Made by a program: the position numbers and the translations under genes. 64,000 nt of DNA from an uncultured Bacilli bacterium. Lineage in GTDB: Bacteria; Bacillota_I; Bacilli_A; RF39; UBA660. The notes beneath the pieces were generated by a model that was not told where the DNA came from, searched no databases, and was given only the letters and a program-made list of their open reading frames with translations. Positions 3,901 through 54,730 of the stretch are shown piece by piece (positions within the stretch are counted from its first letter, which is position 1; every line of letters begins with the position of its first letter). The stretch lies in the NCBI GenBank assembly GCA_947629935.1, contig CANRFQ010000001.1:95042-159041 (forward strand). The letters run 5' to 3'.

Positions 3901-5462
3901 ATATCTTCTAAATATGTAGATATAACCCTACTATCTTCATCATTATTTGCAAAGAAATGAGCCTTTTCGCCTTTTAAGTAAAAAGTATATTTTAAGTTTT
4001 CCCATAAATAGCTTTTATTTTCGTTAGTTAAAATAACTATTTTCAAATCACTAGCACTATAATAAGTAATAATTTGAATAATTAAATAATTTAAAAAGAA
4101 TTCTTTATATTTGAAACTAGGCTCAATAATTAATGGAAGGATATTATTCTCAACCAAAGAAATGGTAATAGGCACTTCTTCTAATATTAATGGAGTATCA
4201 ATCAGTTTTTGGACTTCATCTTTTAAATTATCATCTTCCATAGAAAACTCTTCCAAAGAAGCATCTAATTTAATAGAGGCTTTGATATTACCTACACCTA
4301 ATCTTAAAGTTAAAAAATCGTTATCTAAAATTTCGCGATTCCAAAATTTATTTTTATCACTTATGGCTTTTAAACATTCTTCGGCATTTAAATTGTTTTC
4401 ATATAATATTTCTTTTTCTACTTTTATTTCATTAGCTATTTCATCGCGCTTTTTATTTAAATATTGTGTATATTTCTCTTGCCTTTTGGCTTCTTTTTTT
4501 AATTTTAACTTTTTTGTATATTTATTTAAAAGCATAGGAAACATTATTGTACCTAAAATCATACTAATACAAATAATAATTTCCGTTAAAGAAGATGCCA
4601 AAGTATTTTTCCCACTAACTACATTAAATATAGCAATTATACCTGTAATAGATGAAGATAAACTCATCATAATTGTAGCTCCCATTGTAAGTACTAAAGG
4701 TGGCTCGTTATCTTCTCTTTTTTCAGGAGGGTTAACTATTTTAATTTCTTTTTGCGTTATTTCCTTTTTTAATCTAGGCGCATGAAAAAAAGTTTGATTT
4801 TCATTAAACAAAACAATTCTTTTTTCACTATCTTTTACCGGAGTAAAATGATTATCGGAATCAATTTCTAATTTTGTCTCTTTTTCTAAATTAATTGTAC
4901 AATAATTACGAGGGTTATTTAATTTGATAAATTTATCCATAAAAATTATTTTTAAGCCACTTAAAAAGATTATATCGCCCATCACTAAATTTTTTTTATT
5001 ATATCTTTTAGAATTAACAAAAACATTTTCTGTTTTAGTTTCAAAAATCCAGTTGAAACCATCTTTATGTAAAGTTATTATCGGTGACTTTTGACTTAAA
5101 ATAGGATAAATTATATCACTGTTTCCCCCTCCAATAGTAAGATTATCTTTATTAAAAATTGAATAAGAATAATATTTAGTAGGGATATTAAAGCAATATA
5201 AGAACACGCTATCTTCTAAATCACGAAATTTTAAATTATAAAAAGAGCCATCTGTAATTTCATCTTTATCAATTAGCTCAATATCTTTATAGACACTAAC
5301 ATCATAATCACTAGAAATAGTCCAATTTCCATTTATAGCAGTAAATAAAATGTTTTCTGATACACCATTAATAGATGTATATTCTATAACAAAAGAGTCC
5401 TCAATTTTAGAAGGTAAAGTATAATTTTTTATACTAAATTTATCTGCTAAATATACCTTCAT
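933..5462 (-). CDS. essC: EssC/YukB FtsK-SpoIIIE family T7SS ATPase
   Basis: 1509 aa. The N-terminal region is FHA-like, followed by two TM segments (ITGIIAIFNVV..., ICISMILGTIMFPML) and three P-loop ATPase modules. The first Walker A is GATGSGKSE. The second (GNPGTGKEN) and third are degenerate, as is usual for EssC. Confidence 0.9.
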   Translation of the reverse strand: MKVYLADKFSIKNYTLPSKIEDSFVIEYTSINGVSENILFTAINGNWTISSDYDVSVYKDIELIDKDEITDGSFYNLKFRDLEDSVFLYCFNIPTKYYSYSIFNKDNLTIGGGNSDIIYPILSQKSPIITLHKDGFNWIFETKTENVFVNSKRYNKKNLVMGDIIFLSGLKIIFMDKFIKLNNPRNYCTINLEKETKLEIDSDNHFTPVKDSEKRIVLFNENQTFFHAPRLKKEITQKEIKIVNPPEKREDNEPPLVLTMGATIMMSLSSSITGIIAIFNVVSGKNTLASSLTEIIICISMILGTIMFPMLLNKYTKKLKLKKEAKRQEKYTQYLNKKRDEIANEIKVEKEILYENNLNAEECLKAISDKNKFWNREILDNDFLTLRLGVGNIKASIKLDASLEEFSMEDDNLKDEVQKLIDTPLILEEVPITISLVENNILPLIIEPSFKYKEFFLNYLIIQIITYYSASDLKIVILTNENKSYLWENLKYTFYLKGEKAHFFANNDEDSRVISTYLEDIFNERESNAKNSNTKIDKKEAYKNFNEYYLIITDDFIETKKLGIIDKIINAQNNYGFSLLTIDQSLKNVPSKSSRFIQINGELATISNKNLSAEDTTHFKVETMNKRIDQYLELVANVPISSTATGNNLPTNINFLEMYKVGKIEQLNILNRWMSSDPTITLSVPIGINVDGKLFTLDLHEKAQGPHGLIAGATGSGKSEFIITFILSLAMNFHPYEVQFVLIDYKGGGLAGAFENKETNIKLPHLVGSITNLDKSEMNRTLVSIKSELQRRQSLFNDAREKLGESTIDIYKYQKFYRENKLDIPISHLFIISDEFAELKTQQPDFMEELVSTARIGRSLGVHLILATQKPSGIVDDQIWSNARFKVCLKVQTPEDSNELLKRPEAASINETGRFYLQVGYNETFELGQSAWAGARYFPTERLMKFYDDDITFINNVGEEIKVVNDEAKIESQQDLGDQLSNLVRYMYSLANREKIKFTQLWLPSIPKEIYLGDLIKKYNYQGRRYLINPIVGEYDIPMNQEQKPLIFDFTNQGNMYIFGNPGTGKENLLLTTLYSISIYHTSEEINIYIVDLGAETLKVFSSFPQVGDILLSDEISKIDNLFDMLENELNRRKELFSDYGGSYNSFINTGNFLPFILVVINNYENFYDSCSNEADEKFNSILRDSTKYGISFIITATANNNVSTRVSQYFNIKLATQVADSFDYKFVLNAPSGLVPAKCFGRGIIGVNDTAYEFQGAYIYLKDQITDIIKSVGEKMQYPQARSIPIIPKLINADLMIPYINSLKDIPIGYSIYDGTIVKYDFASQKITPIIGNSLILENKFIINLIKILNSIPVIKLTIIDFANSLYDFDGEDYYINSEFTQAIENIKTNNNDKITNVYILNGISVIYDKVLDEGINSLFDIFNNLSLYNNSYFILTDNSAPFKKTTMEQWYSNNNIYSIIWAGKGVDNQTIMPLNLSKADLSNNNDTIYIICNGQYKVLKGLGAGDE

Positions 5463-5666: not shown

Positions 5667-6701
5667 TTATTTTCTAAAACATTTTTTTACTCTAACTAAA
5701 ATATTTTTATTTTGTTGTTCTAATTTTTCGTTTACGATATTACATATAACTTTCTGAAAATAGAAAGGACAATTACCTATTCTTATAAAAGCATTTTTAA
5801 AGATTAAATCTTCTTTATCAGTAATCTTATCATGCATCACTTCGGCTAGTTTACCTTCAAGTTCATATACATTAAATCTTGAAAATCTAAGTTGTAAAGA
5901 CCCAGCAGGATATAAATGAATAGATATCTCCCAAGGGCCAATGTTTGCTGCAAATTTGGAATTAATTAAATACCTATCAAGCTTATCATCATAGAAAAAA
6001 CTACCATATTTCATTAAGTTATCGTACATATATGATAAATCGGCAATAAGCTCGTTGCTAATATTTAATGATTGCCTATCGTCCCTATTTAATTCTACCA
6101 AAGAAAAATCTTTATTTCGATTATAAATCTTAACTAACGAATTATCGGGATTTTTCGAAATATATAACTCTTTATTACCAATATTTACAAGTAATTTGTA
6201 TTTATATTCTTCATCTATTATTGCTATAAAACATACCACACTAAAATATTCCATTTTTACATTTCCATATTTTTCGGCAAGTTCTTTATTAAATTTCTTT
6301 AATAAACCATTACATTCTTTATTAGTCTTTACAATAATTTGATTAAGATCGTATAAGCTTATAAAATCTTCAAATTCATGCATCCTATGCGTATATTTAA
6401 AATTATCATCATACAATCTTAAATAATGGTCATCTTGAATTTCTTCTTGGTTTAAAAGAGAATTAATTTCAGTTTCAGCTCTATATTTAAGCCAATTAGT
6501 AATTGATAGTTGCTTTTCTGCTTTGAAATCTAATGCCCTAATCATTCTTGAGTAATAAATATTATAAATTGGTATATTGCTATTTTCCGCCATAATTTTT
6601 TGGACACAATCATTAATTTCGTTTTCTTCTACTCTGGGAATACTAGTTACTATACTATCACTCTTTTGAGGCCAATATAAATCGCAAATTTTTACTTCCA
6701 T
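5667..6701 (-). CDS. hypothetical protein upstream of essC (possible T7SS accessory protein)
   Basis: 344-aa ORF with no TM segments and no recognisable motif. It lies immediately upstream of essC on the same strand. Confidence 0.4.
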   Translation of the reverse strand: MEVKICDLYWPQKSDSIVTSIPRVEENEINDCVQKIMAENSNIPIYNIYYSRMIRALDFKAEKQLSITNWLKYRAETEINSLLNQEEIQDDHYLRLYDDNFKYTHRMHEFEDFISLYDLNQIIVKTNKECNGLLKKFNKELAEKYGNVKMEYFSVVCFIAIIDEEYKYKLLVNIGNKELYISKNPDNSLVKIYNRNKDFSLVELNRDDRQSLNISNELIADLSYMYDNLMKYGSFFYDDKLDRYLINSKFAANIGPWEISIHLYPAGSLQLRFSRFNVYELEGKLAEVMHDKITDKEDLIFKNAFIRIGNCPFYFQKVICNIVNEKLEQQNKNILVRVKKCFRK

Positions 6702-8330: not shown

Positions 8331-11147
8331 TTATTTTACAACGATATTAACTATTTTATTTGGTACGACAATTATCTTAACTATTTCTTTACCTTCTAGA
8401 TGTTTTTGAACTTTCTCATCATTTTTGGCTAGTTCTTCTAGAGTTTCCTTTGAACTATCTACAGGGACTTTAATAGTATTACGTAATTTGCCATTAACAG
8501 AAATAGCTATTCCTACTTCACTATCCACTAATTTTGTTTCATCATATTTTGGCCAAGTTTCTTCTGTTAAAGGTTTATACCCTAGTTCTTCATTTAATTC
8601 TTCAGTTATATGAGGAGCAATTGGATTAAGTAAAATTAACAATAAATGATAATCATCTTTTGTAAGCTCTTCTTTTTCTTCATAAGCATTAGCTAAAATC
8701 ATCAAAGTAGAAACGGCCGTATTATAAGCCATATGAGTTAAATCATATTCTACCTTTTTAATACTTTTATGAATTAAAGCCTCTAAATCTTTACTATATC
8801 CTGTTTTTGATCCTACTTTATCTTTAAGTCTTATCACTTTGTCAATAAATCTTTTGCAACCTTTTAAAGAATCTGTACTCCATGGGGCATCTTGTTCATA
8901 ATTACCCATAAACATTTCATATAAGCGTAAAGTATCTGCACCATATTCATTAATGATATCATCAGGATTAATGACATTTCCCTTTGATTTACTCATTTTT
9001 TCATTATTTGAACCTAAAACCATTCCATGAGAAACTCGGGTCCAAATCATTTCTTTATTGGGTACTAAACCAATGTTGTATAAAAATTGAACCCAAAAGC
9101 GCGCATAAAGTAAATGACGAGCTGTATGTTCCATACCGCCATTATACCAATCAACTTTTTGCCAATATTTCATGGCATCCATTGAGGCAAATTCCTCATT
9201 ATTATGAGCATCCATAAATCTTAAGAAATACCAGGAAGATCCGGCCCAGTTCGGCATAGTATCTGTTTCCCTTTTGGCTGGTGATCCACATTTTGGACAA
9301 GTTGTATTTACCCAGTCGGTTATTTTGGCAAGAGGACTCTCACCAGTATCAGTTGGTTCATATTCAGCAACATCAGGAAGTAGTAAAGGTAAATCTTTTT
9401 CATCCATTGGCACCCAACCACATTTTTCACAATAGATCATAGGAATTGGTTCTCCCCAGAATCTTTGACGAGAGAATATCCAATCACGCATTTTATAATT
9501 TACTTGTTTCTTACCACAATGGTTTTGTTCAAGCCAATTAATCATTTTATTAATAGCATCTTCTTTATTTAGGCCATTTAATTCTTCTGAGTTAATATGA
9601 ATTCCATCACCGGTCATAGCTCCCGGTTTTTTAGCATATTCATAAGTTTTCATATGTAATTCATCTTTAATTTCTTTAGAAATTACATCTTCGCTTACCC
9701 ATTCTACTTTAAAATCCTCATCTTCATCTAAATTTTGCCCTATTTTACTATTATCTTTTAATTTAAAGAAATAGCCAGTACTTTCAATATTAAAATATTT
9801 ATCTTTATTATAAACATAGTAGTGATGATTTATTTTCGGTAACTCTTTAATTAATTCTAAAGAAATATATCCCGTTTCTTCAGCAATTTCCCGTTTAGCA
9901 CACTCAAGTGGAGTTTCTTTATCTTTAATAGTTCCCCCTATAAATAAACGGCCACCTTTTTTACCCCAATTTAAAGTCAAATATTTTTTTTCTTTTTCAT
10001 CATAAACTATCGCAACAATAGAGTTTTTCTTTTCTTCCCCATCGTGTGGCGTACCTGTAACTTCTTCTAAAACTTGAATAATCGGAATATTAAACTTTTG
10101 GGCAAATTCATAGTCTCGATCATCATGAGCCGGCACTGCCATAATAGCTCCTGTTCCATAAGTTGCTAAAACATAGTCACTAATATAAATCGGAATTTCT
10201 TTTTTATTAACAGGATTAATTGCATAAGCTCCGGTAAATACACCCGTTTTTTCTTTATTTAATTCTGTTCTTTCCAAATCATTTTTTAAAGCACAAGCTT
10301 TTTTATATGCATCTACTTCCGCTTTTTTGTCTTGTGTCGTTATAATATCAACATATTTATGTTCTGGAGCTAAAACACAGTAAGTTGCTCCATAAAGAGT
10401 ATCACATCTAGTCGTAAAAACGGTAAAAGTTAAATCATGATGAGCAATTTTAAAATCTACATGTGCTCCTACAGATTTACCAATCCAATTTATTTGTCCT
10501 AACTTAACTTTATCGGCAAAATTAGTATCATCTAAACCTTTTAATAAATCTTCTGAGTAAGAAGCCATTTTAAGCATCCACTGTGATTTTTCTTTTTGGA
10601 CAACTCGACTACCACAACGTTCACAAACGCCTCCCGCTGAATCTTCATTTGATAAAACCGTTTTACAAGTCTCACACCAATTAACTGGTACCTTTTCTTT
10701 ATATGCCATTCCATGCTTATAAAATTGTAAAAATTGCCACTGTGTCCATTTATAATAATCCGGATCAGTTGTCGAAAATTCTCGATCCCAATCAAAAGAG
10801 AAACCAATTGATTTCATTTGTTTTTTAAAAGTTGCAATATTTTCTTTAACTGCTTCTTTTGGATGAATATGATTTTTTATTGCATACTGTTCAGCTGGAG
10901 CACCAAATGCATCCCATCCCATTGGATATAACACGTTATACCCTTGCATTCTTTTCATTCGAGCTAAAGCATCTTGGGCTGTATAACTACGAACATGCCC
11001 AACATGTAACCCAGCTCCCGAAGGATAAGGAAATTCAACTAAAATATAATATGGTGGCTTCTCACTACCATTTATTGCTTTAAAAACTCCCTTCTCTTCC
11101 CATCTATTTTGCCATTTTTTTTCGATTGCTTGATGATTTTTTACCAT
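8331..11147 (-). CDS. leuS: leucyl-tRNA synthetase carrying an inserted Nudix hydrolase domain
   Basis: HIGH motif (PYPSGAGLHVGH), KMSKS motif and the LeuRS N-terminus (EKKWQNRWEE). About 145 in-frame residues contain a canonical Nudix box GGTIKDKETPLECAKREIAEETGY. SD GAAAGGATGG lies upstream. Confidence 0.95.
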   Translation of the reverse strand: MVKNHQAIEKKWQNRWEEKGVFKAINGSEKPPYYILVEFPYPSGAGLHVGHVRSYTAQDALARMKRMQGYNVLYPMGWDAFGAPAEQYAIKNHIHPKEAVKENIATFKKQMKSIGFSFDWDREFSTTDPDYYKWTQWQFLQFYKHGMAYKEKVPVNWCETCKTVLSNEDSAGGVCERCGSRVVQKEKSQWMLKMASYSEDLLKGLDDTNFADKVKLGQINWIGKSVGAHVDFKIAHHDLTFTVFTTRCDTLYGATYCVLAPEHKYVDIITTQDKKAEVDAYKKACALKNDLERTELNKEKTGVFTGAYAINPVNKKEIPIYISDYVLATYGTGAIMAVPAHDDRDYEFAQKFNIPIIQVLEEVTGTPHDGEEKKNSIVAIVYDEKEKKYLTLNWGKKGGRLFIGGTIKDKETPLECAKREIAEETGYISLELIKELPKINHHYYVYNKDKYFNIESTGYFFKLKDNSKIGQNLDEDEDFKVEWVSEDVISKEIKDELHMKTYEYAKKPGAMTGDGIHINSEELNGLNKEDAINKMINWLEQNHCGKKQVNYKMRDWIFSRQRFWGEPIPMIYCEKCGWVPMDEKDLPLLLPDVAEYEPTDTGESPLAKITDWVNTTCPKCGSPAKRETDTMPNWAGSSWYFLRFMDAHNNEEFASMDAMKYWQKVDWYNGGMEHTARHLLYARFWVQFLYNIGLVPNKEMIWTRVSHGMVLGSNNEKMSKSKGNVINPDDIINEYGADTLRLYEMFMGNYEQDAPWSTDSLKGCKRFIDKVIRLKDKVGSKTGYSKDLEALIHKSIKKVEYDLTHMAYNTAVSTLMILANAYEEKEELTKDDYHLLLILLNPIAPHITEELNEELGYKPLTEETWPKYDETKLVDSEVGIAISVNGKLRNTIKVPVDSSKETLEELAKNDEKVQKHLEGKEIVKIIVVPNKIVNIVVK

Positions 11148-18107: not shown

Positions 18108-18977
18108 TTAACCTTTACGAGATTTTTTAGTCAATTTTTTTTCATCATAATCCTCTATTAAATAGCTTTGTAAATTAGAAGTGTGCGGACAATATTTAAG
18201 TTTTTTTAAAGCTTTATGCTCTCTAATAAATACTCTTTGTTTAGTTCTCCCAACTATTTTCCCTACTTCATCCAATGTCCGAACTTTACCATCATAAAGT
18301 CCATAATGTAACATTAAAATTTTAACATCTATCGGTTGCAAAATATTGAGAGCTTTTAACAAATCTTGGCTAATAAACTTTTGAATTACTTCTTCTTCAG
18401 GAGTTTGGTTAATATCAGGAATTTTATCACCTAATTCATCATTTTCATCCGCAGTTATTTTTTGATTCAAAGAAATAAGATCCTTAGTACTAAACAATAT
18501 TCTTTTTAATTTATCAACGCTAACTTTAAGTTCTGGGGCTATTTCTTCTAAAGAAGGAATTCGGTTTTCTTCTTTTAAATATTTATATATAACCAATTTA
18601 TATTTTGCTAACAAATCTTGGATTTCTTTTGGGGCTCTGATAGTTTGGCCATACTTTAGTATACTTTGCTGAATATTTTGATTTATCCAATAACCAGCAT
18701 AAGTAAGCAAACTATAATTTTTGGTTAAATCAAAACGTTCTATTGCTTTCATAAAACCAATCAATGCTTCTTGTTTGATATCATCCTTATCAAAAGTAGT
18801 ATCTAAAGGATGATATTTGTGGGCTTGTTGATAAATAAAATTCTGATGCATAGCAACAAGAGCATTAAAATATTGTGAATCATGAGTTTCTTGATATAGT
18901 TTAATTAATTCATGTTCCCTTTTTTGTTGATTACTTTTTTGGGGAGAATTATCATTCTCAGTTTTTAATTCTTTCAT
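18108..18977 (-). CDS. sigma-70 family RNA polymerase sigma factor (RpoD-like paralog)
   Basis: Region 2 (IGFMKAIERFDLTKNYSLLTYAGYWINQNIQQSI) and region 4 (LHYGLYDGKVRTLDEVGKIVGRTKQRVFIREHKALKKL). Confidence 0.8.
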   Translation of the reverse strand: MKELKTENDNSPQKSNQQKREHELIKLYQETHDSQYFNALVAMHQNFIYQQAHKYHPLDTTFDKDDIKQEALIGFMKAIERFDLTKNYSLLTYAGYWINQNIQQSILKYGQTIRAPKEIQDLLAKYKLVIYKYLKEENRIPSLEEIAPELKVSVDKLKRILFSTKDLISLNQKITADENDELGDKIPDINQTPEEEVIQKFISQDLLKALNILQPIDVKILMLHYGLYDGKVRTLDEVGKIVGRTKQRVFIREHKALKKLKYCPHTSNLQSYLIEDYDEKKLTKKSRKG

Positions 18978-18995: not shown

Positions 18996-21900
18996 TTATA
19001 TTCTTTCCTTTAACAACTTTGTTAGCGAATTGGTCAAAGCCTTAGGTTCTAATAAATCATTACAGTTTTCTTTAATAACTTGTAAGCCTTCTTTAATATA
19101 TTTTAGAGTTGTTAATTTATCTAACCCTAATAAATTAGCAATATTTTCTACTGAAAAATTATATCCTATTACTTCTGGTATATATAATATTGTAGCATAA
19201 ACTTTCATATTATAAAGATAATTTTTTAAAGTTAATGATAAGTTAGAGTTCTCTAATATTTCATTAATATTATTATTTTTTAAAGAAAATTGATCTAATT
19301 TTTCAGTACTAATAACCTTAAGAGGAAGATTTATGGGCTGATAATCATATATTTTAAGTTCTTCCCTTTTCCTTAAGGATAGATAAGTATCCTTTAAACT
19401 TTCAAAATCATCATTTTTACTTAAACGATAAACTTTATTTAAAGTTCTTACTATATTACTAATTATCATATAGAATCTAGTATCCTTTTTAGATTTTAAT
19501 GTACTATTAAAATCTTGAGGATTTTCCACAGAATTTTGACAGATTTTCAGATTTGTCTTAGTTTGATAACTTAAAAGTAAATCAACTATTTCCTTAGTTA
19601 TTGGATAAGAAATACGGCTTTCAATATATTGATATAAAGATCCGGAATTAAATTGTGATAACTTAATATCACCGTTTTTATATTCCGCATAATGTTTTTT
19701 TAGTAAACTTTTAAGGCGGTTTAATATATAATCAAAATTACCAGTATCTTCTTGTAAAGTGGCGCGATTAAAAGGGGTTTTAAAGTCCGGACCAAAATAA
19801 TTTTTAAGTGACTGTTGGAAATTTAAAGTTTGACTTTCAATAATATATAAAATATATTCTTCTTCATAATTTAAACGGTCAAATAAATTTAAAGCCGTTT
19901 GTTTTTTTGATGATATATATATTTTCTCATATGTAGCGCATAAAGTCTCGGGATTTTGATTTTCACTTTCTGCATAAACTTTTTCTATTTTACTTTTAAT
20001 TAAAAATATAAAACTACTAAATTTGTTGGCATCTTTGGGAGAAAGTGATTTATAAGTGGCTAATTGATAATCCTTTTCTAAAGCTAAAGATTTAAAGAAA
20101 TTTAATTGTGTTTTAGTTAAATTATTTAAAACTAAATCCATGAAAACTTGGTGAATATTATAATCAGGAATTCGATCTTGAATATAATAAGCTAAAGTAT
20201 ATTTTTTATATAAATTATTTTTTCCAAAAAATTGACCATTTTGATATTCTTTATAGTATCGTCCTAATTTTTTATAAAACTTATTTAAAATTATTTGCAA
20301 ATTTTCCTTTTGTTCGCTACTAAAATTTGCTATATTAATGTCTTCCTTATAATTTTCACCTAGTATACTAATAAATTCATCTTCTAAAAAGCTTGATCTA
20401 CTTAAAAGTCCATCAATATAATTTTGATCATAGAAATAAAAATATTCATAAAGATTAAAGGTAGTTAAAGAATTTAGATTTTTTAAGCGTCTAGGAGTAA
20501 GTAAAATATACTCTTTTTTTAATTCATTAATATTTCCATCTGGAACTTTTTCGTAAGCTAACATTAACTTTTCAATAACCATATTAATAACATGATAAAA
20601 TTTTAGTGGATCATCATTATCTAAATTATAAGCACTAGCTGCCGAAAATGGTTTTTGACAAAATAAGGATAAGGTTTTCTCTTGCTTTCCGGTTAAAGAT
20701 TTTAAAGCATAATCTACTAATTGTTTATCTATTTTTAAATTCGTAACTCTTTTATTTATGTAATCCATAATAGTCATATATTGAAGATTAGTAGTTGTTA
20801 AAAGGCCATTTTGATATTCTGCATATCGACTCTCCAAGTAACTACGCACTTTCTCTAAAAGTTCATTTAATTTATCTTTATCCTGTTTGTTTAAATCATT
20901 GAAATTTACAGACTTTGATAAATCTTCTCCAAAATATTGTTTTAACATTTGCAAACGCTTGGTAGTATCAAGCTTTAGCATATAGTTTATATATTCTAAA
21001 TCATAGTTTTGGTAGTATTCATAAAAATTAAAAATTTCGGTTTTTTTCTGTTCATAATGGTTATTTTCATTAATAATTCTTTTAAGGTTCTCTATATCCC
21101 CATTATTGTGTGCTTGACGATAAGCTTTCTTTAAAATATTGCGAATATTGGCCAATAAATTAGCTAAGATATTTTTGGTTTGAGTATTGACAATATAGAA
21201 AGTCCCATTTTTATAATCTTGACCAAATAATGTTTGAAAAAACTTGATTGTCTTTTCAGAAGAATTATCAAGTACGTAGTCAATAATCTCTTGAGAAAAT
21301 TGATAAGTTTTATTATTAACTAAACTATATATATTACTTAATTTAATGTCATAATTTTGTTGGTGCACTTCTAAAGCCCTTGTCTGCAGTTGCGAATCAT
21401 TATTTAAATTTGAATCATAAACTAAATGTAACTGATAATTTAGATTAATAATAATTTGACAAAAAAGAGCTATATTAATATTATTTAAATTTAAAGATTG
21501 GGAATTTTTATAATCTTCGCTTTGCCAAACCTTTTGTAATAAACCAATTTCTCTTTTACTTAAACTATTTAAAAAAATATCAATAATTTCTTTATGATAA
21601 TTAACTTTTGGATTAAATTTTTGTAAATAGCTATATATATCGATATTAAGAGTACCATTTTCATTAGAGCTTATAAAATCATGAGAAATCACGGAAAACA
21701 ATTGGGAATCATAAAGATAAAAAGGATAATATTTAGCTAGCAAATTTTGAAAATTATATAATTTTGTTAAGCTGTTATTAGATAAACGAATTTTTTCATT
21801 AGTAAATGGGAGATCACTTTCATTCGAATAAGCTTTAATCATTAAATCGAGGTATTCTTTAGGATAATTGGCAAAATATTCGTGCATATTAAGAACTTTT

Positions 21901-23660
21901 AGGGGCACTTTTTCATTTTTTTCGAGTTTTGCAAAAATATATTTTACGCGATTTAAGGAATTGTCATCTATAAAAACCTTAGCTTCTAAATTAGAGCCAA
22001 ATTTAGAAGTTAATAGATTGTAATCTTCTAACGTTAAATAATTTAAATAATTTTGGATTTTCGATTTCGAAAGGGCAAAATATTGATTAATTGTTTTGCT
22101 GTGACATGCTTCGTATTCTTCCTGCTTGGTTTGCAAAGTTTGAGCAAAATCTGCTTGAGCCATTTTAAAAGCATCGGCATAAAAGAATATGCGCAGTAAA
22201 TTAAAATCCTGATTAGGTTTTAAACATAAAGAATCATAATAAGTTTGATTTAGACAATATTTAATATATTCTGGGTTATATTGGTCATATAAGGTGTAAA
22301 TATTAACAAGCTTACCATCTGCAAACAGTTGAAATAAATCCGGATTTTTAATTGCTACCTCTAAAGCATATTCCGATTTAGTTTTAAGAAAAAATTGTTT
22401 ATATTTTTTAATAAATTGGTGAAGTGGCTCCATATTTGGTACATATTGTTGAGGAATTTTTTTCGTTAAACTTTCACCCCAATTTTTCTTTACGCCCTCT
22501 TTAACATAATCAGGCATATATTTAAGAGCAATCTTAATTAACTCTATACTAGTATGAAAATAATCTGTTATTTTAAAGTCCTCGGTTCTTTTAGATATAG
22601 AATTATCTTCCCAATCATCTCTAATATAACTTTGCAAAGGTTTAAATTTATAATAATTTTTTAATTTATTTAAAGCTTTTTTTTCAATTTGTCTAATTCT
22701 TTCTCGCGTTACATTAAATACTTGTCCTACTTCCTCCAAAGTCCTTTCTCGTCCATCACCTAATCCAAATCTTAAAGAAAGAATACGCATTTGACGAGGA
22801 TTTAAAATTTTTTGCATTATTTGTAATATTTCTTTACTTTTAACATTTTCAATAATCTCTCTTTCAATATCTAACTCTGTATCAGGGATAAATTCTTGCA
22901 GTTCACTTTCATCATCCTCAAAAGTGGTTTGTAAAGAAATAGTTTTTTGATTAAATTTTTTGTATTCCTGAATTCTACCAACAGTTACTCCCAACTCATC
23001 TGCAAGTTCTTTTTCAGTTGGTTCTCTTCCTAATATTTCGGTAAGTCTTACTTGCGTTCTAATCATCTTATTAATCTTATCGCGCATATGGACGGGAATT
23101 CTAATAGTTTCAGAGCTATCGGCAATGGTTCTTGAGATACTTTGATTTATCCACCAAGTAGCATAAGTAGAAAATTTATAACCCTTTGTGTAATCAAATT
23201 TATCAATAGCTTTTAAAAGTCCTTCATTACCCGCTTGAATTAAATCTAAAAATTCCAGACTGTGCCCTACATATTTTTTGGCAATAGAAACAACTAAACG
23301 TAAATTAGCTTCCGTAAATTTACGTTTGGCTTCTTTATTTCCTGCCGCTGTAGCTTTGGCTAAAGCAATCTCTTCTTGAACTGTTAATAATTTAATTTGG
23401 CCAATTTCTTTTAAATACACTTTGACAGAATCATCATATACAAAATCATAGTTTTCTTCCTCGTAAAAGTTAGCTTCATCGGTTTTTGAAACTTTTATTT
23501 CTACATTATTTTCTGTCAAAAAATTATATAAATCATCAAAAGAATCACTATTTAACTTTAACTCCTTAATTAAATTATCTAATTCATTTAAAGTGACATA
23601 ACCTCGATCTTGGCCTAATTTTAATAATTCTGCCTTTTTTTCCTTATAATCTTCAACCAT
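18996..23660 (-). CDS. rpoD: primary sigma factor RpoD fused to a ~1200-aa C-terminal repeat-containing extension
   Basis: The N-terminal ~345 aa are a complete sigma-70: region 1.2, region 2 ([20 protein letters not shown]), region 3 and region 4 ([37 protein letters not shown]). The same ORF then continues for about 1200 aa, including at least three ~190-aa tandem repeats (YFGxD...EYxNG...LTxxQ). Confidence 0.85.
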
Positions 23661-23687
23661 TTTAAAAACTCCCCAACTTATTTACCT

Positions 23688-23716
23688 AGTGTACTTAATT
23701 TCGCTTTTTATGTCAA
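23688..23716 (-). promoter_or_regulatory. sigma-A type promoter of rpoD
   Basis: Minus-strand TTGACA, a 17-nt spacer, then TACACT. GGGGAG SD lies before the ATG at 23660. Confidence 0.5.
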
Positions 23717-30606: not shown

Positions 30607-32193
30607 TCATTTACTTAATGGTTTTATTTTATAAAATATATTAACATTTTGGTTTTCATCAATCACGATTTTGTCAATTAATGATGATAAAAGTTTTTTA
30701 CTAGGTTGCTTTAAAGATAAAAACTCTTTAATTATGTTTGTATATCTTAAATTATCTTTATTAGCCACTTTATTTTTAATAGCATATAACTTTGTTTCGA
30801 TTTCATTTGCTTTTTTCTTGAAGTCTAATGTTTCATTTGTAAAATCGTTATATTGCCTTTTAAACATTTCGTCATCTATTAACCCTCTCAACTTATCTTT
30901 ATATAGCTTATCAATGTATATTGTTTGCGTTTTTATATCATTTTTTATTTTAGTTAGTTGTTTTTCTAAATCTAATTGTATTTTATTCATTTTATCATTA
31001 TTTTTGAGCAATTCTTCAAAATTACTTGTCTTTAAATATTCATTACATTTCTTTTTAATATCCTTTAATATTTCAGTTTCTAACTCATTATAATCAACTT
31101 TATGGGGAGTACATACATTATATTTCGAAAACTTTTTCCAAAAGTTACAATAACAGATGTTTTTTGTTTTTTTTACTCCATTACAGCTCCATTTTGCTTG
31201 GCCTATGGAAATTGTGTGACCACACTCTTTACATACTAGAAAGCCCCTTAAAAGATATTCTAATGAGTTATCAGTTCTATTTTTATTTTTAGCGTACATA
31301 GCTTGAACGATATTAAAAGTTTCTTCATCGATAATAGCAGGACAAGCCCCTTTTGCTATAATCCAATTTTTTCTATCATTTTTTTTCCTTTTCTTTGATT
31401 TATAACTAATTTTATACTCACGACATTGTGTTAAATCTCCCATATATGTAGGATTTGTAAGTATATCACTTATGGTTGTTTCTTGCCATACCCCATATAC
31501 ACTTGATTTAACACCACGATTCAGATTTTTTTGTATGCTTGGTATAGGTACATTTTCATCAGTTAGTAAGTTCGCAATTTTTTTAACTCCTATACCATTT
31601 ATGAATAAATCATATATTCTTCTAACTATGGTTGCTTGTTCTTCATTTATAACAAGTTCATGCTTATCATATGGTAAATTTCTTTCATAGCCATAAGGTG
31701 CTATACCACCCATAAACTTGCCGTTTCTTTTTTGAGAGTTTAAAGTTGCTTTGATTTTAGTAGATATATCTTTTACATACATTTCATTATAAAATGCCTT
31801 AAACATTAACATATCAGTATTTTGGGATTTATCAAATGTGTCTATTCCATCAGTTAATGCAATATATCTTACATTTTTTTCTTGAAAATATTCAGTTGAA
31901 TAGTATAAACTTTGGGATATATTGCGTCCCAAACGGCTCGTATCTTTGGTAATAACCATATTTATTTTACCATTCTCTATATCTTCAATTAGCCTATTCC
32001 AACCGTTTCTATCAAACTCAGTACCACTCACGCCATCATCAATATATTCGTTAATAAATGTTAAATTGTTTTGTATAATATAATTCATTATATAATCTCT
32101 TTGGTTGCTGATGCTTTGACTTTCATCATCTTTTTCATCATCTCGAGATAATCTTAAGTATATACCTACTTTGTATGTTTCCATTTTATTCAT
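30607..32193 (-). CDS. large serine recombinase (SpoIVCA/phage-integrase type)
   Basis: Resolvase-type catalytic N-terminus (VGIYLRLSRDDEKDDESQSISNQRDY), recombinase domain, zinc ribbon (CKECGHT...CNGVKKTKNICYC) and C-terminal coiled coil. The start was placed at MNKMETYK, which has SD AGAGGAAAG. Confidence 0.85.
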   Translation of the reverse strand: MNKMETYKVGIYLRLSRDDEKDDESQSISNQRDYIMNYIIQNNLTFINEYIDDGVSGTEFDRNGWNRLIEDIENGKINMVITKDTSRLGRNISQSLYYSTEYFQEKNVRYIALTDGIDTFDKSQNTDMLMFKAFYNEMYVKDISTKIKATLNSQKRNGKFMGGIAPYGYERNLPYDKHELVINEEQATIVRRIYDLFINGIGVKKIANLLTDENVPIPSIQKNLNRGVKSSVYGVWQETTISDILTNPTYMGDLTQCREYKISYKSKKRKKNDRKNWIIAKGACPAIIDEETFNIVQAMYAKNKNRTDNSLEYLLRGFLVCKECGHTISIGQAKWSCNGVKKTKNICYCNFWKKFSKYNVCTPHKVDYNELETEILKDIKKKCNEYLKTSNFEELLKNNDKMNKIQLDLEKQLTKIKNDIKTQTIYIDKLYKDKLRGLIDDEMFKRQYNDFTNETLDFKKKANEIETKLYAIKNKVANKDNLRYTNIIKEFLSLKQPSKKLLSSLIDKIVIDENQNVNIFYKIKPLSK

Positions 32194-32439
32194 AATTTTC
32201 TTTCCTCTATTTTTATTTTGTAATATTATTTTCGTTATAAAATATAAGCAAAAATTGTTCCATAATAGCTTGTAATGTTTTACCATTTTCATCAAATGTA
32301 CTTGTTATTTTCATAAGTTCACCTATTTAAACTTATGCTAAATTAATTTTTTATTTTCATAATATTCAAAATTATGAAAACAATGTTATAATAAATTTAA
32401 TAAATAGATGATTTTCAAAATTGAAAGTGAGTTGAAACC

Positions 32440-33580: not shown

Positions 33581-34810
33581 ATGAAAGAACAAGAATTAAA
33601 TTATATAAAAAAGTTAATCGATAAAGATGTAGCTAATAATGATCAAGAAAGCTTAGAAAAATTAAAAAATTATTTAACTAAGAAACTTTCAATTTTCGTT
33701 TATAATAATCCCGATATATTAAATTTAAATTTAATAACATTTTTAAAAAATGAAATTACCAAAATTAATATTCCTAGGAAAATTAAAATTTATACCCTAT
33801 GTAATCATTTAGCTAAATATTATAATATTCCTGCTCCAAATGTTCTTGTAAAACATCTCATAGAAGTGGATTTAACTTGGCTATTACAACAAAGCCATAT
33901 TGGACCTCAGACAATTATCACTTTAAATATAATTTTAAATCAATATAACTTTAGTTTAAAAGATATTTCGCCTCAAATTATTAATACAATATCTTTAAAA
34001 CAATTATTAATAATGGATGGTCAGAACGATAATTTAACCCAAATAATTCTCGAAGAATTATCTTCCTACTGGCAAATTTCTAAAGATTTAATAACAGTAA
34101 ATAAATTATGTTACTTAAATCTTAACGATCCTTTTGTCCAAAATGCTTTGGATAAAAATGTCATAACTTATTTAAATGAATTATTTCAAAAATATCATAT
34201 TGAATATAAAGGAAATCCGGTTAAATTCCAAAAAGATATACTAAATTTAGACCTAAATAATTTTCTCCAAATTGAAAGTAAGCACCCAAATTTTAAAGGT
34301 ATATTACATATTAGTGGTATTATTGATGCAGTTGGTACTTATCGTCACATTCCTAACAATATGACTAAAGTTTATGATTTAATCGGTATTAACCTTGATT
34401 GCTTTAAAAATAGTAATAATATTGGTATTAAAACAATTAATTATTTAGAGCACATTTTAAATAAATATGGCTTAAGTTTAACATCAACAAATGACACAAT
34501 TAGTAATTTACAAAGTCAAAGGGATAATTTAGAACTAGATATCCTAAATTGGAATTTAGAAAAATTTATTATTAATCATATTCCCGCCAATAAACAACAG
34601 TACTTAAAATATTTACTACCTGATTTTAAAAAGGCAATAATAGCAACGCTCAATAAAGATAATCAAGATATTACAGTTCAGGATGCAATTGACGCTATGA
34701 AGATGAATTTAGATATACCTATCGGAATAATAAAAGTGTTTAAAAAAAGTTTAAAGCGTTATGAAAACTCTATTTTACAAGAACAGATTACTTATTCATT
34801 AAAAGCATAA
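33581..34810 (+). CDS. hypothetical protein
   Basis: 409-aa soluble ORF with no recognisable motif. SD GAAGGGAAAA lies upstream. Confidence 0.5.
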   Translation: MKEQELNYIKKLIDKDVANNDQESLEKLKNYLTKKLSIFVYNNPDILNLNLITFLKNEITKINIPRKIKIYTLCNHLAKYYNIPAPNVLVKHLIEVDLTWLLQQSHIGPQTIITLNIILNQYNFSLKDISPQIINTISLKQLLIMDGQNDNLTQIILEELSSYWQISKDLITVNKLCYLNLNDPFVQNALDKNVITYLNELFQKYHIEYKGNPVKFQKDILNLDLNNFLQIESKHPNFKGILHISGIIDAVGTYRHIPNNMTKVYDLIGINLDCFKNSNNIGIKTINYLEHILNKYGLSLTSTNDTISNLQSQRDNLELDILNWNLEKFIINHIPANKQQYLKYLLPDFKKAIIATLNKDNQDITVQDAIDAMKMNLDIPIGIIKVFKKSLKRYENSILQEQITYSLKA

Positions 34811-41703: not shown

Positions 41704-43457
41704 TTTGCTAACTCCTCCTCTGATATTTGGGATAAGGCAATTTGTTTATAAACTTCACAATTTTGTAATAACTCTTTGTGAGTGCCTATTCCCACACATT
41801 TACCATTATCTAAAACTATTATTTGATCAGCATGCATAATAGTACCAATTCTTTGGGCAACAATTAAAGTCGTTGCCTCTTTTGTATATTTTTTTAATTC
41901 TTTTCGTAATGTAGCATCCGTTTTATAATCTAAGGCCGAAAACGAATCATCAAAGATATAAATTTCGGGATCTTTAGCAATAGCTCGTGCAATGGCTAAT
42001 CGTTGTTTTTGCCCTCCTGATATATTTGTACCTCTAGCGGCAATATGCGAATCGTATTTATCATCCATTTTTAAAACAAATTCTTCTGCTTGGGCAATTT
42101 TAATCGCTTCTTTAATTTTTTTATCACTAATCTTTTTTCCATTATCACCATAAGCAACATTCTCTTTAACAGTTCCATTAAACAATACCGCTTTTTGAGG
42201 AACATACCCTATTTTATTATGTAAATCCGTTTGTTTATAGTCCTTAATATTAATTCCATCTACGAAAATTTCACCTTTAGTTACATCATAAAAACGCGGA
42301 ATTAAATTAATAAGAGTTGATTTACCACTACCCGTAGAACCAATAAAAGCTACTGTTTGCCCTTTTTCTACTTTAAACGAAATATCTTCCAGCAAGTACT
42401 CTTCAGCATCGGGATACATAAAGCTCACATTTTTAAATTCTACTGTGCCTTTTTGCTTAGTTTCCAAGCTTTCTTGTTGGCCATCCATAATAGTGATATC
42501 TTCATCTAATACTTCTCTAATACGTTTGGCTGAAATACTGGCTCTTGGCATCATCATAAAAATCATAGCTAGCATTAAAAAGGACATAATTACTTGCATA
42601 GCATATGATGAGAAAACAACCATATCACCAAACAAAGAAATTTTATCAGCCAATAATGCACCATCAATTAAATTAGCACCAATTAAATAGATAAATAAAG
42701 TTAGAAAATACATAACCAAATACATAATCGGCATCATAATAGCAAAAGTTTTTTGATTAAATAATTGTTGTTTAGTTAATTTATTATTAACATCATCAAA
42801 TTTATCTTGTTGGAATTTCTCCGCATTAAAAGCTCTAATTACTCTAATACCTGTTAGATTTTCTCTAGTTACTCCGTTAACTTTATCAATTAATTTTTGA
42901 ACAATTTTAAATCTGGGCATAACAATAGCAGTAATTATACCAATAACTGTAAGCAAAATAATAACAGCAATCCCAGTAAGCATACTCCATTCCCAACTTT
43001 TATTTAAAATCTTCGTAATCGCCCAAATGGCTGTAATAGGAGCTTTAATCAACAATTGGACTCCCATTGCTAAAAACATTTCAATTTGGGTAATATCATT
43101 TGTTGTTCGCGTAATTAAGCTAGATGTACTAAATTGTTTTACTTCATGCATAGCCAAATTTTCGACTTTAGTAAATAATTTTTTACGAGTTTCTAAGGAA
43201 AACAAAGCAGCCACATTAGCAATAAAATAACCAACAATAATAGCCGATATTAAGCTTCCTAAAGCACATAACATCATAAAGCCCCCATTTTTTAAAATTT
43301 CGGCCATTTTACTACCCTCAGTTTGCACTAAAACAGTTATTTCTGACATGTAATCAGGCATTTTTAATTCCAACCATACTTGGGCAAAAATTAAAATAAA
43401 ACTGATAGCTATAAATAAGTAAACCTTTTTATTCAATCCTTTTAATAATTTAAGCAT
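41700..43457 (-). CDS. ABC exporter subunit (permease plus ATPase), partner of the downstream gene
   Basis: Walker A (GSTGSGKST), signature (ISGGQKQRL) and Walker B (IFDDSFS). A 4-nt overlap with the next gene indicates a heterodimeric type I exporter. Confidence 0.85.
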   Translation of the reverse strand: MLKLLKGLNKKVYLFIAISFILIFAQVWLELKMPDYMSEITVLVQTEGSKMAEILKNGGFMMLCALGSLISAIIVGYFIANVAALFSLETRKKLFTKVENLAMHEVKQFSTSSLITRTTNDITQIEMFLAMGVQLLIKAPITAIWAITKILNKSWEWSMLTGIAVIILLTVIGIITAIVMPRFKIVQKLIDKVNGVTRENLTGIRVIRAFNAEKFQQDKFDDVNNKLTKQQLFNQKTFAIMMPIMYLVMYFLTLFIYLIGANLIDGALLADKISLFGDMVVFSSYAMQVIMSFLMLAMIFMMMPRASISAKRIREVLDEDITIMDGQQESLETKQKGTVEFKNVSFMYPDAEEYLLEDISFKVEKGQTVAFIGSTGSGKSTLINLIPRFYDVTKGEIFVDGINIKDYKQTDLHNKIGYVPQKAVLFNGTVKENVAYGDNGKKISDKKIKEAIKIAQAEEFVLKMDDKYDSHIAARGTNISGGQKQRLAIARAIAKDPEIYIFDDSFSALDYKTDATLRKELKKYTKEATTLIVAQRIGTIMHADQIIVLDNGKCVGIGTHKELLQNCEVYKQIALSQISEEELAK

Positions 43458-45529: not shown

Positions 45530-47374
<1,845 letters not shown>

Positions 47375-54658: not shown

Positions 54659-54730
54659 TACGCAAATTATAAATTGACATTTTTACTAAACAATATTAAT
54701 ATAGCAGATAACAGAAATGAGGTTTCATTT

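Follow-up and report, generated by a model that had tools for sequence, protein, structure and literature searches.

The group 1 σ factor SigA of Bacillus subtilis contains regions 1.1, 1.2, 2, 3, and 4 in that order, and in established holoenzyme structures the C-terminus of σ4 lies beside the β flap, on the upstream side. Additional sequence after region 4 is known from the ECF41- and ECF42-type σ factors, group 4 proteins with regions 2 and 4 only, in which the extension is one domain of ~100–200 aa, unrelated in fold (SnoaL-like or TPR), and is thought to modulate the activity of the σ factor that carries it. Another unusually large σ70 protein is MzaA of the MZA anti-phage system (NF041931, PDLC02203). 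Here, we describe a SigA-like σ factor that continues far beyond region 4, an architecture that is apparently undescribed; our literature searches turned up no account of it.

The window, i.e., the whole stretch of DNA that was analyzed, comprises 64,000 nt from an uncultured Bacilli bacterium (RF39; UBA660; GCA_947629935.1, CANRFQ010000001.1 positions 95,042–159,041, forward strand). The giant σ ORF (18996..23660, minus strand) encodes 1,554 aa and runs from an ATG to a single TAA; neither TGA nor TAG occurs in frame, so the reading frame stays open whether code 11 or code 4 is applied. We are highly confident of its anatomy, in which a SigA-like σ factor is followed by a 15-residue linker, twelve helical beads, a short linker, and a second complete region-4-like domain. 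The features of the locus, all on the minus strand, are as follows:

23688..23716, minus strand: promoter-like TTGACA-17-TACACT (consensus scan, 10/12 matches, and direct sequence reading; frequency about that of chance here)
23669..23674, minus strand: Shine-Dalgarno-like GGGGAG, 8 nt 5' of the ATG at 23660 (direct sequence reading)
22620..23660, minus strand: SigA-like σ70 moiety, aa 1–347 (five Pfam regions and an end-to-end match to B. subtilis SigA)
23469–23648, minus strand: region 1.1, aa 5–64 (Pfam)
23331–23432, minus strand: region 1.2, aa 77–110 (Pfam)
23118–23312, minus strand: region 2, aa 117–181 (Pfam)
22875–23078, minus strand: region 3, aa 195–262 (Pfam)
22659–22805, minus strand: region 4, aa 286–334 (Pfam)
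22575..22619, minus strand: polar linker of 15 residues, aa 348–362 (between the end of the SigA alignment at aa 346 and the first unit at aa 363)
22095..22574, minus strand: junction module, units U1–U2, aa 363–522, C-terminal to region 4 (HMM built without window sequences; junction alignment)
21648..22094, minus strand: U3–U4, degenerate, aa 523–671 (same HMM, i-Evalues 3e-05 and 1.7e-04; pairwise z ~2)
21036..21647, minus strand: U5–U6, both B-type, aa 672–875 (same HMM, 5.5e-12 and 3.7e-17)
20463..21035, minus strand: super-repeat 1, U7 (A, acidic) and U8 (B, basic), aa 876–1066 (z = 16–17 against super-repeats 2 and 3)
19896..20462, minus strand: super-repeat 2, U9 (A) and U10 (B), aa 1067–1255 (shuffle z scores, same HMM)
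19353..19895, minus strand: super-repeat 3, U11 (A) and U12 (B), aa 1256–1436 (shuffle z scores, same HMM)
19254..19352, minus strand: linker or degenerate start of a 13th unit, aa 1437–1469 (low pLDDT at model residues 181–192, corresponding to aa 1436–1447; alignment)
18999..19253, minus strand: complete region-4-like domain, aa 1470–1554 (hhalign against genuine region 4)
18108..18977, minus strand: sig2, a second σ70 family gene of 289 aa without regions 1.1 and 1.2 (Pfam regions 2, 3, and 4)

All five regions of the σ moiety score above the Pfam gathering scores and occur in the normal order; region 1.1 was missing from the list in the earlier note. Residues 7–346 align to SigA of B. subtilis (7ckq_F, 371 aa) over its residues 15–370 with an E-value of 6e-91, and since the alignment runs to the end of SigA, the extension begins exactly where SigA stops. 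The motifs that read the −10 and −35 elements (15 and 10 residues) are kept, as are the determinants in regions 2.3/2.4 and 4.2 (stretches of 19 and 24 residues, from direct reading and the SigA alignment). The protein had been described as a complete housekeeping σ factor, and completeness is borne out by the Pfam and SigA matches. Its housekeeping role, in turn, is unproven, because the protein misses the NCBIfam RpoD equivalog cut-offs (355.5 versus 572 for PRK09210; 289.2 versus 354 for TIGR02393, RpoD_Cterm), because it has no dnaG neighbor, and because its core appears, from sequence comparison, to evolve faster than the flanking genes. The gene upstream is tyrS, not dnaG, and a Pfam scan of 32 ORFs of the window turned up no DnaG-family protein (nine ORFs of at least 150 aa lay outside the scan). 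The σ core is 51–53% identical to that of its syntenic orthologues, versus 57–82% for the flanking genes and 80% for the adjacent sig2.

The promoter and Shine-Dalgarno motifs, which had been taken to mean that the gene is presumably expressed, are both present. However, promoter-like matches in this AT-rich DNA (49 observed versus 39.4 ± 5.7 in shuffles) are not clearly above chance, and therefore the TTGACA-17-TACACT match is no evidence of expression of the giant gene. On the downstream side, sig2 begins 18 nt past the giant gene's stop codon and a terminator scan found none in between, so that the two genes are probably co-transcribed.

An assembly or sequencing error that deleted a stop codon could have joined an rpoD gene to a downstream repeat-protein gene. 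Free-standing repeat-protein genes do exist (P0001, P0002, P0009, and P0012), and in L015 a 2,090-aa ORF and P0002 lie in adjacent frames, so indels or gene splits happen at such loci. However, there is no missed stop codon at the junction, and L002, an independent metagenome contig of the same species that is 99.86% identical over window positions 25279–22457, is open across it. (The gene call on L002 ends early because of errors in the final ~40 bases of this 2x-coverage contig.) The junction from region 4 to U1 is also continuous and homologous in L011, L012, L015, P0006, P0007, P0022, P0027, and P0028, and GC3 is uniform along the giant gene (0.176 in the σ part and 0.171 in the tail). An artefact is essentially refuted by these observations, with only a minimal probability left to it, and the fusion proposed in the earlier note is real.

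Comparison with relatives further upholds the view of a lineage-specific fusion, one that is very unusual among group-1-like σ factors. It is conserved in syntenic orthologues: two assemblies (L011 and L012) carry a 1,760-aa orthologue in the same TyrRS...rSAM-MFS-GH31 synteny, and in L015 an ORF of 2,090 aa is collinear with aa 9–1419 of the window protein, with P0002 as the next gene and an 80%-identical sig2 as the third. The same architecture occurs in at least 10 further metagenomic proteins, including P0011, P0022, P0027, P0028, P0034, and P0036, and appears to be confined to a few uncultured low-GC bacteria of gut and rumen.

The tail (aa 348–1554) has no significant Pfam match. The claim of at least three clear tandem repeats of ~190 aa holds, as the three super-repeats (aa 876–1066, 1067–1255, and 1256–1436) score z = 14.6–17.3 against shuffles, with 0/300 shuffles reaching the observed score; the peptide motifs that had been quoted are all found in the tail. 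The segment at aa 672–875 matches the next super-repeat at z = 4.8. In contrast, the earlier count of about five units of 190 aa has to be replaced, since the basic period is ~95 aa (autocorrelation peaks at lags 99, 189, 288, and 481). With an HMM built solely from unit sequences of other proteins, 12 units of 63–104 aa are detected. They start at aa 363, 453, 523, 591, 674, 776, 878, 963, 1069, 1149, 1258, and 1341, and their i-Evalues lie between 3e-21 and 8e-4. The ~190-aa super-repeat results from the alternation of A- and B-type units. The units follow the pattern (I/L)Y.YF..Y..E.I...L..L.......L...(F/Y)G.D, then a long helix. A search for a long-period tandem repeat at the DNA level found none.

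The AF2 model of a single unit (U7) has a pLDDT of 89.8 and consists of 4–5 helices, and that of the 299-aa C-terminal block has a pLDDT of 79.6 and a pTM of 0.40, with low-confidence linkers. The models thus predict a string of beads, each well folded by itself but with undefined relative placement. As a whole, the bead region is slightly basic (pI 8.5; relatives reach 9.7), with B-type units at pI ~9 and A-type units at ~5, and the net charge of the full 1,207-aa tail is +7. The beads are fast-evolving, and their surfaces have no conserved polar residues.

The tail had been interpreted as an array of region-4 helix-turn-helix (HTH) modules. The similarity to region 4.1 that underlies this interpretation is present: the sub-motif L..q...L...(F/Y)G.D aligns with σ region 4.1, the unit profile matches genuine region 4 in hhalign (P 2.5e-4, probability 43%) over 28 columns that cover region 4.1 only, and a unit HMM from distant relatives matches 6/6 genuine region 4 sequences. 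The HTH itself is where the interpretation fails, as PF04545 (Sigma70_r4) gives no match to the window units at E up to 10, and the units of P0012 match it at profile positions 2–20 only. In Foldseek, the AF2 unit has region 4 among its top matches, although below significance (E ≥ 2.9). Altogether, the units weakly resemble region 4.1 only, with first helices that may be derived from it or convergent on it, and they appear to have lost the HTH, leaving just the 4.1 half detectable.

We also tried and rejected the possibility that the ~95-aa units are WXG100/ESAT-6-like helical hairpins tied to an EssC-like ATPase 13.5 kb away. This reading drew on a window-only unit profile whose top PDB sequence match was Staphylococcus aureus EsxA (E 0.007; two further WXG100 proteins at E 0.2–0.3), on a unit length of ~100 aa with (W/F/Y)xG in a loop, which recalls WXG100, and on an FtsK/SpoIIIE protein encoded at 933–5462. 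With a broader profile of 36 units, however, EsxA recedes into unrelated noise (E 0.12), the AF2 model shows a domain of 4–5 helices rather than a two-helix hairpin, and the (R/K)YGED carried by the units of relatives matches σ region 4.1. We consider its probability negligible.

The last part of the tail is a complete region-4-like domain that the earlier note missed. In hhalign, it matches genuine region 4 at 94.7% (E 6e-8) over 73 columns, spanning both 4.1 and the 4.2 HTH; its profile has σ region 4 as the top 12 matches among PDB sequences (best E 0.013), and its Foldseek top matches are nearly all σ factors (E ≥ 0.05). Pfam gives no match to this domain of the window protein. No other part of the tail is as well conserved: the domain is 60% identical to P0002, versus 25–37% between the units and their L015 counterparts. 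Its equivalent of the recognition helix differs from that of genuine region 4 (13 residues each), and the conserved Arg, Glu, and Gln contacts to the −35 element are absent. Across the family, this helix has 0–2 Arg and a net charge of −3 to +1, whereas the genuine one is at +2 to +3 in 5/6 compared proteins, the exception being P0007 at −2. In the window protein, it contains three Lys and has a net charge of +1.

These properties bear on whether the tail could be an arm that runs along the DNA 5' of the −35 element, with the terminal HTH, and possibly the B-type beads, binding a distal element. Such an arm would provide promoter specificity or anchoring in a genome of 25–30% GC with frequent −10/−35 look-alikes, and the roughly chance frequency of promoter-like hexamer pairs would make added specificity useful. 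The full HTH fold of the terminal domain, the mildly basic bead region, and the upstream exit of the tail from σ4, which is established structural knowledge, all agree with this proposal. However, the −35 contacts are absent and the recognition-helix equivalent is neutral to acidic with few Arg across the family, the A-type beads are acidic, the beads have no first HTH helix, and a net charge of just +7 is spread over the whole tail. We therefore regard DNA reading as unlikely.

The beads and the terminal domain also occur apart from the giant σ factor. A unit HMM derived from the window finds tandem arrays in every repeat-bearing homologue, and in some genes, including ones immediately downstream of orthologous giant σ genes, the cassette of beads and terminal domain stands free: P0001 and P0002 adjoin giant σ genes, and P0009 and P0012 are repeat-only proteins. 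Super-repeat 3 is collinear with P0002, P0009, P0004, and P0001. In P0004, P0006, and P0007, the tail is carried by another σ paralogue, with a core closer to sig2 than to the window's RpoD-like core; a module homologous to U1–U2 again follows region 4 in these proteins, and the junction module has phmmer matches to P0005, P0006, and P0007 (E 2e-12 to 6.5e-16). The cassette is N-terminal to the σ core in one case. The proteins have between 1 and 18 beads, with near-identical recent duplications in P0001 and P0028. This distribution shows that the cassette is an autonomous evolutionary unit.

Free-standing cassettes encoded beside giant genes would also fit a tail that is a built-in autoinhibitor, as in a pro-σ factor. 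The tail or the terminal σ4 mimic would fold back on the σ moiety or compete with its region 4, keeping the σ factor inactive until a signal or a protease removes the tail; cassettes that stand free would on this view act in trans as anti-σ-like proteins. The regulatory C-terminal extensions of the ECF41/ECF42-type σ factors (PMC3426412) are a precedent, and a flexible linker is present after region 4. Against this, the tail is far longer than autoinhibition requires, the number of beads is variable, and the window locus has no conserved protease or anti-σ partner, so that this reading seems improbable to us.

The rapid change of the cassette could alternatively reflect a genetic conflict in which the beads and the σ4 mimic serve as decoys that titrate σ4-targeting factors, such as phage anti-σ proteins of the AsiA/ORF67 type, and thereby shield transcription. 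Rapid evolution and copy-number change would then be accounted for: at the syntenic locus, σ genes and tails are 25–53% identical, versus 57–82% for the flanking genes and 80% for sig2, domains have been shuffled and beads expanded, and the beads keep just the r4.1-like half. However, the only PADLOC match is that of the generic σ core to MzaA, with none in the tail, no defense genes adjoin the locus, searches of phage and plasmid collections found no relatives of the protein, and relaxed constraint on a spacer explains rapid change equally well. The decoy reading is accordingly a distinctly improbable one.

The explanation that we find best overall, and adopt tentatively at somewhat less than even confidence, is that the tail is a σ-tethered protein-interaction arm acting on RNA polymerase or on σ4 ligands. 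The specific mechanism suggested by the architecture, in which the terminal σ4-like domain would be the working end of this arm, we put forward with greater reserve. The σ moiety would form holoenzyme in the ordinary way, and the tail would emerge from region 4 beside the β flap, on the upstream side of the polymerase, as a long, flexible arm. Since the terminal domain keeps the region 4 fold but has no Arg-rich −35 helix, its likeliest partners would be σ4 ligands other than DNA, i.e., the tip helix of the β flap (of the same or another polymerase) or σ4-directed regulators. Partner binding would then adjust the σ factor's activity or insulate it, with the beads supplying reach and perhaps valency. 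The tail may also have one of the roles suggested in the earlier note (tether, scaffold, or built-in anti-σ factor).

Several observations speak against this mechanism. The Lys residues of the terminal domain (net +1) and the mildly basic beads leave DNA or RNA binding possible, and fast-evolving beads with no conserved polar surface suit a passive spacer as well as they suit a binding array. Moreover, competition in cis for the β flap would not obviously require a spacer of ~1,100 residues, and the structural similarity between beads and σ4 is below significance.

Among known systems, the giant protein compares with group 1 SigA, with which it shares all five regions in order, the end-to-end match, and the conserved −10 (YATWWI.Q.I.R) and −35 (10 residues) motifs. 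Unlike SigA, it has 1,207 residues past the normal C-terminus, and unlike a typical rpoD, its gene has tyrS upstream, a fast-evolving core, and a second σ gene 18 nt downstream. With regard to MzaA, the likeness lies in the large size and in homologous cores (E 3e-56, aa 105–352), but the extra sequence of MzaA is N-terminal (core at profile positions 424–673 of 683) and has no repeat beads. An identification as MzaA was rejected, as the score of 278.5 is far below the NCBIfam cut-off of 800 and reflects a generic σ core match; no Mza partner genes were seen, the scanned neighbors being housekeeping genes. Relative to the region 4 family (PF04545), the terminal domain likewise spans 4.1 and the 4.2 HTH and the beads match the helices of 4.1 up to their final (F/Y)G, whereas the beads have no HTH, the terminal domain has no −35 contacts, and neither is matched by Pfam in the window protein. 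Finally, the giant σ factor resembles the ECF41/ECF42 proteins in carrying a non-σ extension C-terminal to region 4, but it differs from these group 4 proteins in being group-1-like and in having an extension made of 12 r4.1-like beads and a second region-4-like domain.

The minus-strand gene at 18996-23660 is a single 1554-codon open reading frame (ORF) with an ATG start and a TAA end. Since it contains no in-frame TGA or TAG, this reading is independent of the genetic code. In Pfam searches, the encoded giant protein matches all sigma-70 regions listed below, with no significant match past residue 334.

23716-23688, upstream of the giant gene: promoter-like TTGACA-17-TACACT
upstream of the giant gene: GGGGAG ribosome-binding site
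residues 5-64 of the giant protein: sigma-70 region 1.1
residues 77-110: sigma-70 region 1.2
residues 117-181: sigma-70 region 2
residues 195-262: sigma-70 region 3
residues 286-334: sigma-70 region 4

Residues 7-346 align to residues 15-370 of the 371-aa B. subtilis SigA (7ckq_F, E 6e-91), and both promoter-reading motifs, for the -10 and the -35 element, are kept ([15 protein letters not shown] and [10 protein letters not shown]). Therefore, the sigma moiety is complete and the extension starts exactly at the normal SigA end, in agreement with the earlier note, which had described an uninterrupted 1554-aa ORF with a complete sigma factor at its start. That note had also taken an intact promoter and Shine-Dalgarno sequence as a sign of expression. 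Both motifs are present, but this 25-30% GC DNA has about as many promoter-like matches (49) as shuffled sequence (39.4 +/- 5.7), so the motif is not evidence that the gene is expressed. GC3 is 0.176 in the sigma part versus 0.171 in the tail, and exact database look-up returned no record for either the giant protein or the leucyl-tRNA synthetase (LeuRS) of the window.

The fusion is not an assembly artefact, which is ruled out by read-through in an independent contig and by syntenic fusions in related genomes. Specifically, L002, a 2.8-kb contig from an independent metagenome assembly that is 99.86% identical to window 25279-22457, crosses the junction between region 4 and the extension without a break, and no missed stop or frameshift was found there. 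The gene call on this contig (P0010, 389 aa) is cut short solely by errors within the final ~40 bases of the contig, which has 2x coverage. The same sigma-tail fusion recurs at syntenic loci of related genomes. Loci L011 and L012, from two assemblies, carry TyrRS, a 1760-aa sigma, the repeat protein P0001, pseudouridine synthase, radical SAM, MFS, and GH31; their 1760-aa protein matches window residues 12-442 over the junction (37.6% identity) and has about 11 units and a C-terminal helix-turn-helix (HTH). At L015, a 2090-aa sigma ORF is collinear with window residues 9-1419 in a single HSP (33% identity); P0002 comes next and, after it, a gene 80% identical to sig2, the second sigma gene of the window. 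The 2090-aa ORF stops at a TGA overlapping the TTG with which P0002 begins in an adjacent frame (L015 6400-6450), and P0002 provides the units and the sigma4-like cap missing from it; the pair is either a single gene of ~2370 aa interrupted by an indel or two separate genes. In addition, the giant gene contains no long-period DNA tandem repeats, which makes artefacts of repeat collapse or expansion unlikely.

Self-BLAST of the whole giant protein gave zero off-diagonal matches, and the internal repeats were resolved by chunked BLAST, autocorrelation, and hidden Markov models (HMMs). Chunked BLAST detects repeat offsets of about 95, 190, and 380 aa (best E 5e-14), and the autocorrelation of the tail peaks at lags 99, 189, 288, and 481. 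The ~190-aa tandem repeats reported earlier are borne out as three super-repeats (z = 14.6-17.3, with 0 of 300 shuffles matching the observed score), but the basic unit is smaller: two units of ~63-104 aa make up each super-repeat, giving 12 tail units (U1-U12). A-type units are acidic (pI about 5) with the pattern NLYEYF..Y..EYI; B-type units are basic (pI about 9), with an insertion past the first helix and an additional C-terminal helix. For a non-circular test, we used an HMM built from units of other proteins only, with no window sequence. It recovers 12 of 12 units (i-Evalues 3e-21 to 8e-4), starting at residues 363, 453, 523, 591, 674, 776, 878, 963, 1069, 1149, 1258, and 1341. Elsewhere in the window there are no further units (best E 0.095). 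AlphaFold2 models one unit, from a 36-unit alignment, as 4-5 main helices (pLDDT 89.8, pTM 0.76). Modelling 299 residues, from U11 and U12 through the linker to the C-terminus, gave confident domains (pLDDT 79.6), a pTM of 0.40, and low confidence at the linkers (model residues 78-84 and 181-192), which indicates that the tail would be arranged as beads on a string.

The beads, judged from sequence, appear to be only partly region-4-like. The unit pattern "Y.kE.Id..L..Lt......l...fGe" aligns by hhalign with genuine region 4.1 helices over 28 columns (P 2.5e-4, probability 43%), and an HMM of units taken from three distant relatives (P0008, P0011, and P0012) matches six of six genuine region 4 sequences. 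The units of P0012 collectively match Pfam Sigma70_r4 (E 7e-33), at profile positions 2-20 only, and also match phage sigma-factor PHROGs; the window units give no match to Sigma70_r4 even at E 10. As such, the array of region-4-like HTH modules proposed in the earlier note holds for the region 4.1 likeness but not for the HTH half of region 4, which is not detectable in the units. None of the Pfam, NCBIfam, PHROGs, or PADLOC models recognises the bead family in the giant protein, and the beads make up a new ~90-aa domain family, predicted to fold confidently.

A full region-4-like domain, missed in that first reading, makes up the last ~85 residues of the protein and is distinct from the units. 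It aligns with genuine region 4 over 73 columns (hhalign, 94.7% probability, E 6e-8), and the top 12 matches of its profile to PDB sequences are all sigma region 4. Foldseek matches to the 299-residue model are almost all sigma factors, none of them significant. Across the family, the equivalent of the recognition helix has 0-2 Arg and a net charge of -3 to +1, versus +2 to +3 in genuine region 4, with one to three Arg, in five of six cases (P0007 is the exception, at -2). This composition favours a protein partner over DNA as what the terminal domain would contact, and we consider it unlikely that the tail serves as an arm reading upstream DNA.

Relatives of the tail are rare. An exhaustive HMMER search of 1.84 billion representatives returned only 12, and a further search with P0012 added 10; word-indexed homology searches with the tail and the unit alignment found none. 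Their sources are metagenomic assemblies or MAGs throughout (ENA, Logan, NCBI), and those of two are presumably published cattle-rumen and ruminant-gut MAG sets. A scan of GTDB-representative genome contigs returned only an unrelated RpoD, and no tail relatives were found in the JGI metagenomes and viral contigs scanned.

Architectures of proteins carrying tail units
RpoD-like fusions (window, L011 and L015 proteins, P0011, P0022, P0027, P0028, P0034): group-1-like core with 3-16 units
sig2-type fusions (P0004, P0006, P0007): extra N-terminal region-4-like HTH, core, 1-5 units
reversed order (P0036): units ahead of the sigma core
small sigma-like N-terminus (P0030): 18 units
repeat-only (P0001, P0002, P0009, P0012): units, then the cap (weakly conserved in P0012)

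Five further proteins (P0029, P0031, P0032, P0033, P0035) have units and no detected sigma core, in a scan that covered units only. The sigma4-like cap is found in the window, L011, P0011, P0022, P0027, and P0028 proteins and, for L015, in the adjacent P0002 ORF. Overall, the plan of a sigma core, then 1-12 beads, then a sigma4-like cap is seen in at least a dozen metagenomic proteins of low-GC gut or rumen bacteria, and the free-standing cassette of beads and cap reaches 18 beads. The extra N-terminal HTH precedes the sigma core in P0004, P0006, and P0007 (residues ~20-80) and at L011 2704-2950; in P0004 it matches Pfam Sigma70_r4 (E 0.002), and the window protein has no such HTH.

At the locus, sig2 (18108-18977, minus strand) encodes 289 aa with regions 2, 3, and 4 and no region 1, and starts 18 nt downstream of the giant gene with no terminator between them. 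The sigma cores of P0004, P0006, and P0007 are closer to sig2 than to the RpoD-like core of the window, so that in these relatives the tail sits on the other paralogue. Synteny common to the relatives comprises Dus, TyrRS, DUF2238, radical SAM, MFS, and GH31, and the flanking genes are 57-82% identical. The RpoD-like core is 51-53% identical to its L011 and L015 orthologues, sig2 is 28-38% identical to the sig2-type cores and 80% identical between the window and L015, and identities between tail units and their L015 counterparts are 25-37%. At 60% identity to P0002, the terminal domain is the best-conserved part of the tail. By these identities, the sigma genes appear to diverge far faster than their neighbours.

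A 265-283-aa gene lies 3' of the giant sigma gene in three distant relatives, overlapping it at L013 (14049-14846) and L014 (6575-7426) and 55 nt downstream at L005 (6234-7076); the L005 protein, with a zinc ribbon and DUF5684, has no counterpart at the window locus and may be an anti-sigma-like partner. At L004 6938-7858, between TyrRS and the sigma-repeat gene, where the window has the RpoD-like part, lies the gene of a secreted or membrane-anchored 306-aa protein that has a signal peptide and, near its C-terminus, a hydrophobic segment. An ABC-transporter pair adjoins the sigma gene at L003 and L004, as does YebC at L003; in the window these genes lie 16-37 kb away (39370-43457 and 60380-61099).

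Regions 1.1 and 1.2 and the canonical recognition residues favour a housekeeping role for the giant protein. It scores below both NCBIfam RpoD cut-offs, its core evolves faster than neighbouring genes, the gene upstream is tyrS, and a scan of 32 window ORFs, a set that leaves out nine of 150 aa or more, found no DnaG-family protein. That it is the housekeeping sigma is thus unproven. Such genes will receive the label "rpoD" despite this doubtful role, which calls for caution among annotators.

Altogether, an intact sigma moiety is followed by a flexible tail of region 4.1-like beads and a conserved sigma4-like end domain, and this cassette is autonomous and has been fused to sigma factors repeatedly. 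Fusion and adjacency suggest that the cassette would act on the same complex as sigma. In established holoenzyme structures, the C-terminus of sigma4 lies on the upstream face, next to the beta flap. We tentatively favour a mechanism through a protein partner of the terminal domain: the tip of the beta flap, whether in cis or on a different polymerase, or else a regulator directed at sigma4. An autoinhibitory or pro-sigma function of the tail seems to us rather improbable. A bolder and speculative version, to which we give little weight, is that the cassette is an unrecognised mobile mimic of sigma4 that binds the beta-flap tip, sigma4-targeting regulators, or phage anti-sigma proteins; each of 12-18 beads would present a flap-binding 4.1 surface, and the giant sigma would bring several polymerases together on one scaffold or, in an arms race, serve as a decoy sponge. 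Such mimicry would explain the fast shuffling of sigma cores, bead number, and free-standing cassettes at the locus. Least probable among these readings is a tail that serves as a decoy array in genetic conflict. PHROGs gave no match to the window tail and PADLOC detected only the generic sigma core of the giant protein (to MzaA), which lends no support to a defence role; tblastn against phage and plasmid collections found no tail relatives. Contact of the tail with RNA polymerase or sigma4 ligands, if real, would constitute a new layer of control on transcription initiation and a natural case of a duplicated sigma domain reused for regulation.

Other features of the window are as follows.

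933-5462, minus strand: 1509-aa FtsK/SpoIIIE-family protein resembling EssC of type VII secretion
8331-11147, minus strand: full 938-aa LeuRS
30607-32295, minus strand: large serine recombinase
44826-44900: tRNA-Cys
45530-47374, plus strand: large serine recombinase
52165-53547, minus strand: 460-aa truncated LeuRS copy

No link of the FtsK/SpoIIIE-family protein to the sigma tail was found, and the lead that the units are WXG100 proteins was rejected. The two recombinases and the tRNA-Cys suggest integrated mobile elements. The truncated LeuRS copy retains the end of the editing domain, part of the catalytic core, and the anticodon-binding domain. Pfam gives no match for nine ORFs of 231-534 aa, at E cut-offs of 0.001 (5667-6701 and 33581-34810) or 1e-5 (43856-44722, 49028-49957, 50867-51898, 53963-54658, 54674-56176, 56197-57801, and 58368-59495). 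Six of them lie between 49 and 60 kb, a stretch that may belong to a mobile or otherwise novel region.

The giant-sigma architecture, which includes a new domain family, is robust and surprising. Known group 1 sigma factors stop after region 4, the part that rests on the beta flap and reads the -35 element, and we know of no primary-like sigma that runs >1,000 residues past it. Full-text searches of the literature returned no description of a primary-like sigma with a sigma4-derived bead array of >1,000 residues and a second sigma4-like domain, an absence from those texts that is not proof. Known systems comprise sigma-70 factors and ECF sigma factors with single C-terminal regulatory domains (PMC3426412). 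Whereas those ECF factors carry one such domain, the giant sigma carries a bead array of >1,000 residues and a second sigma4-like domain.
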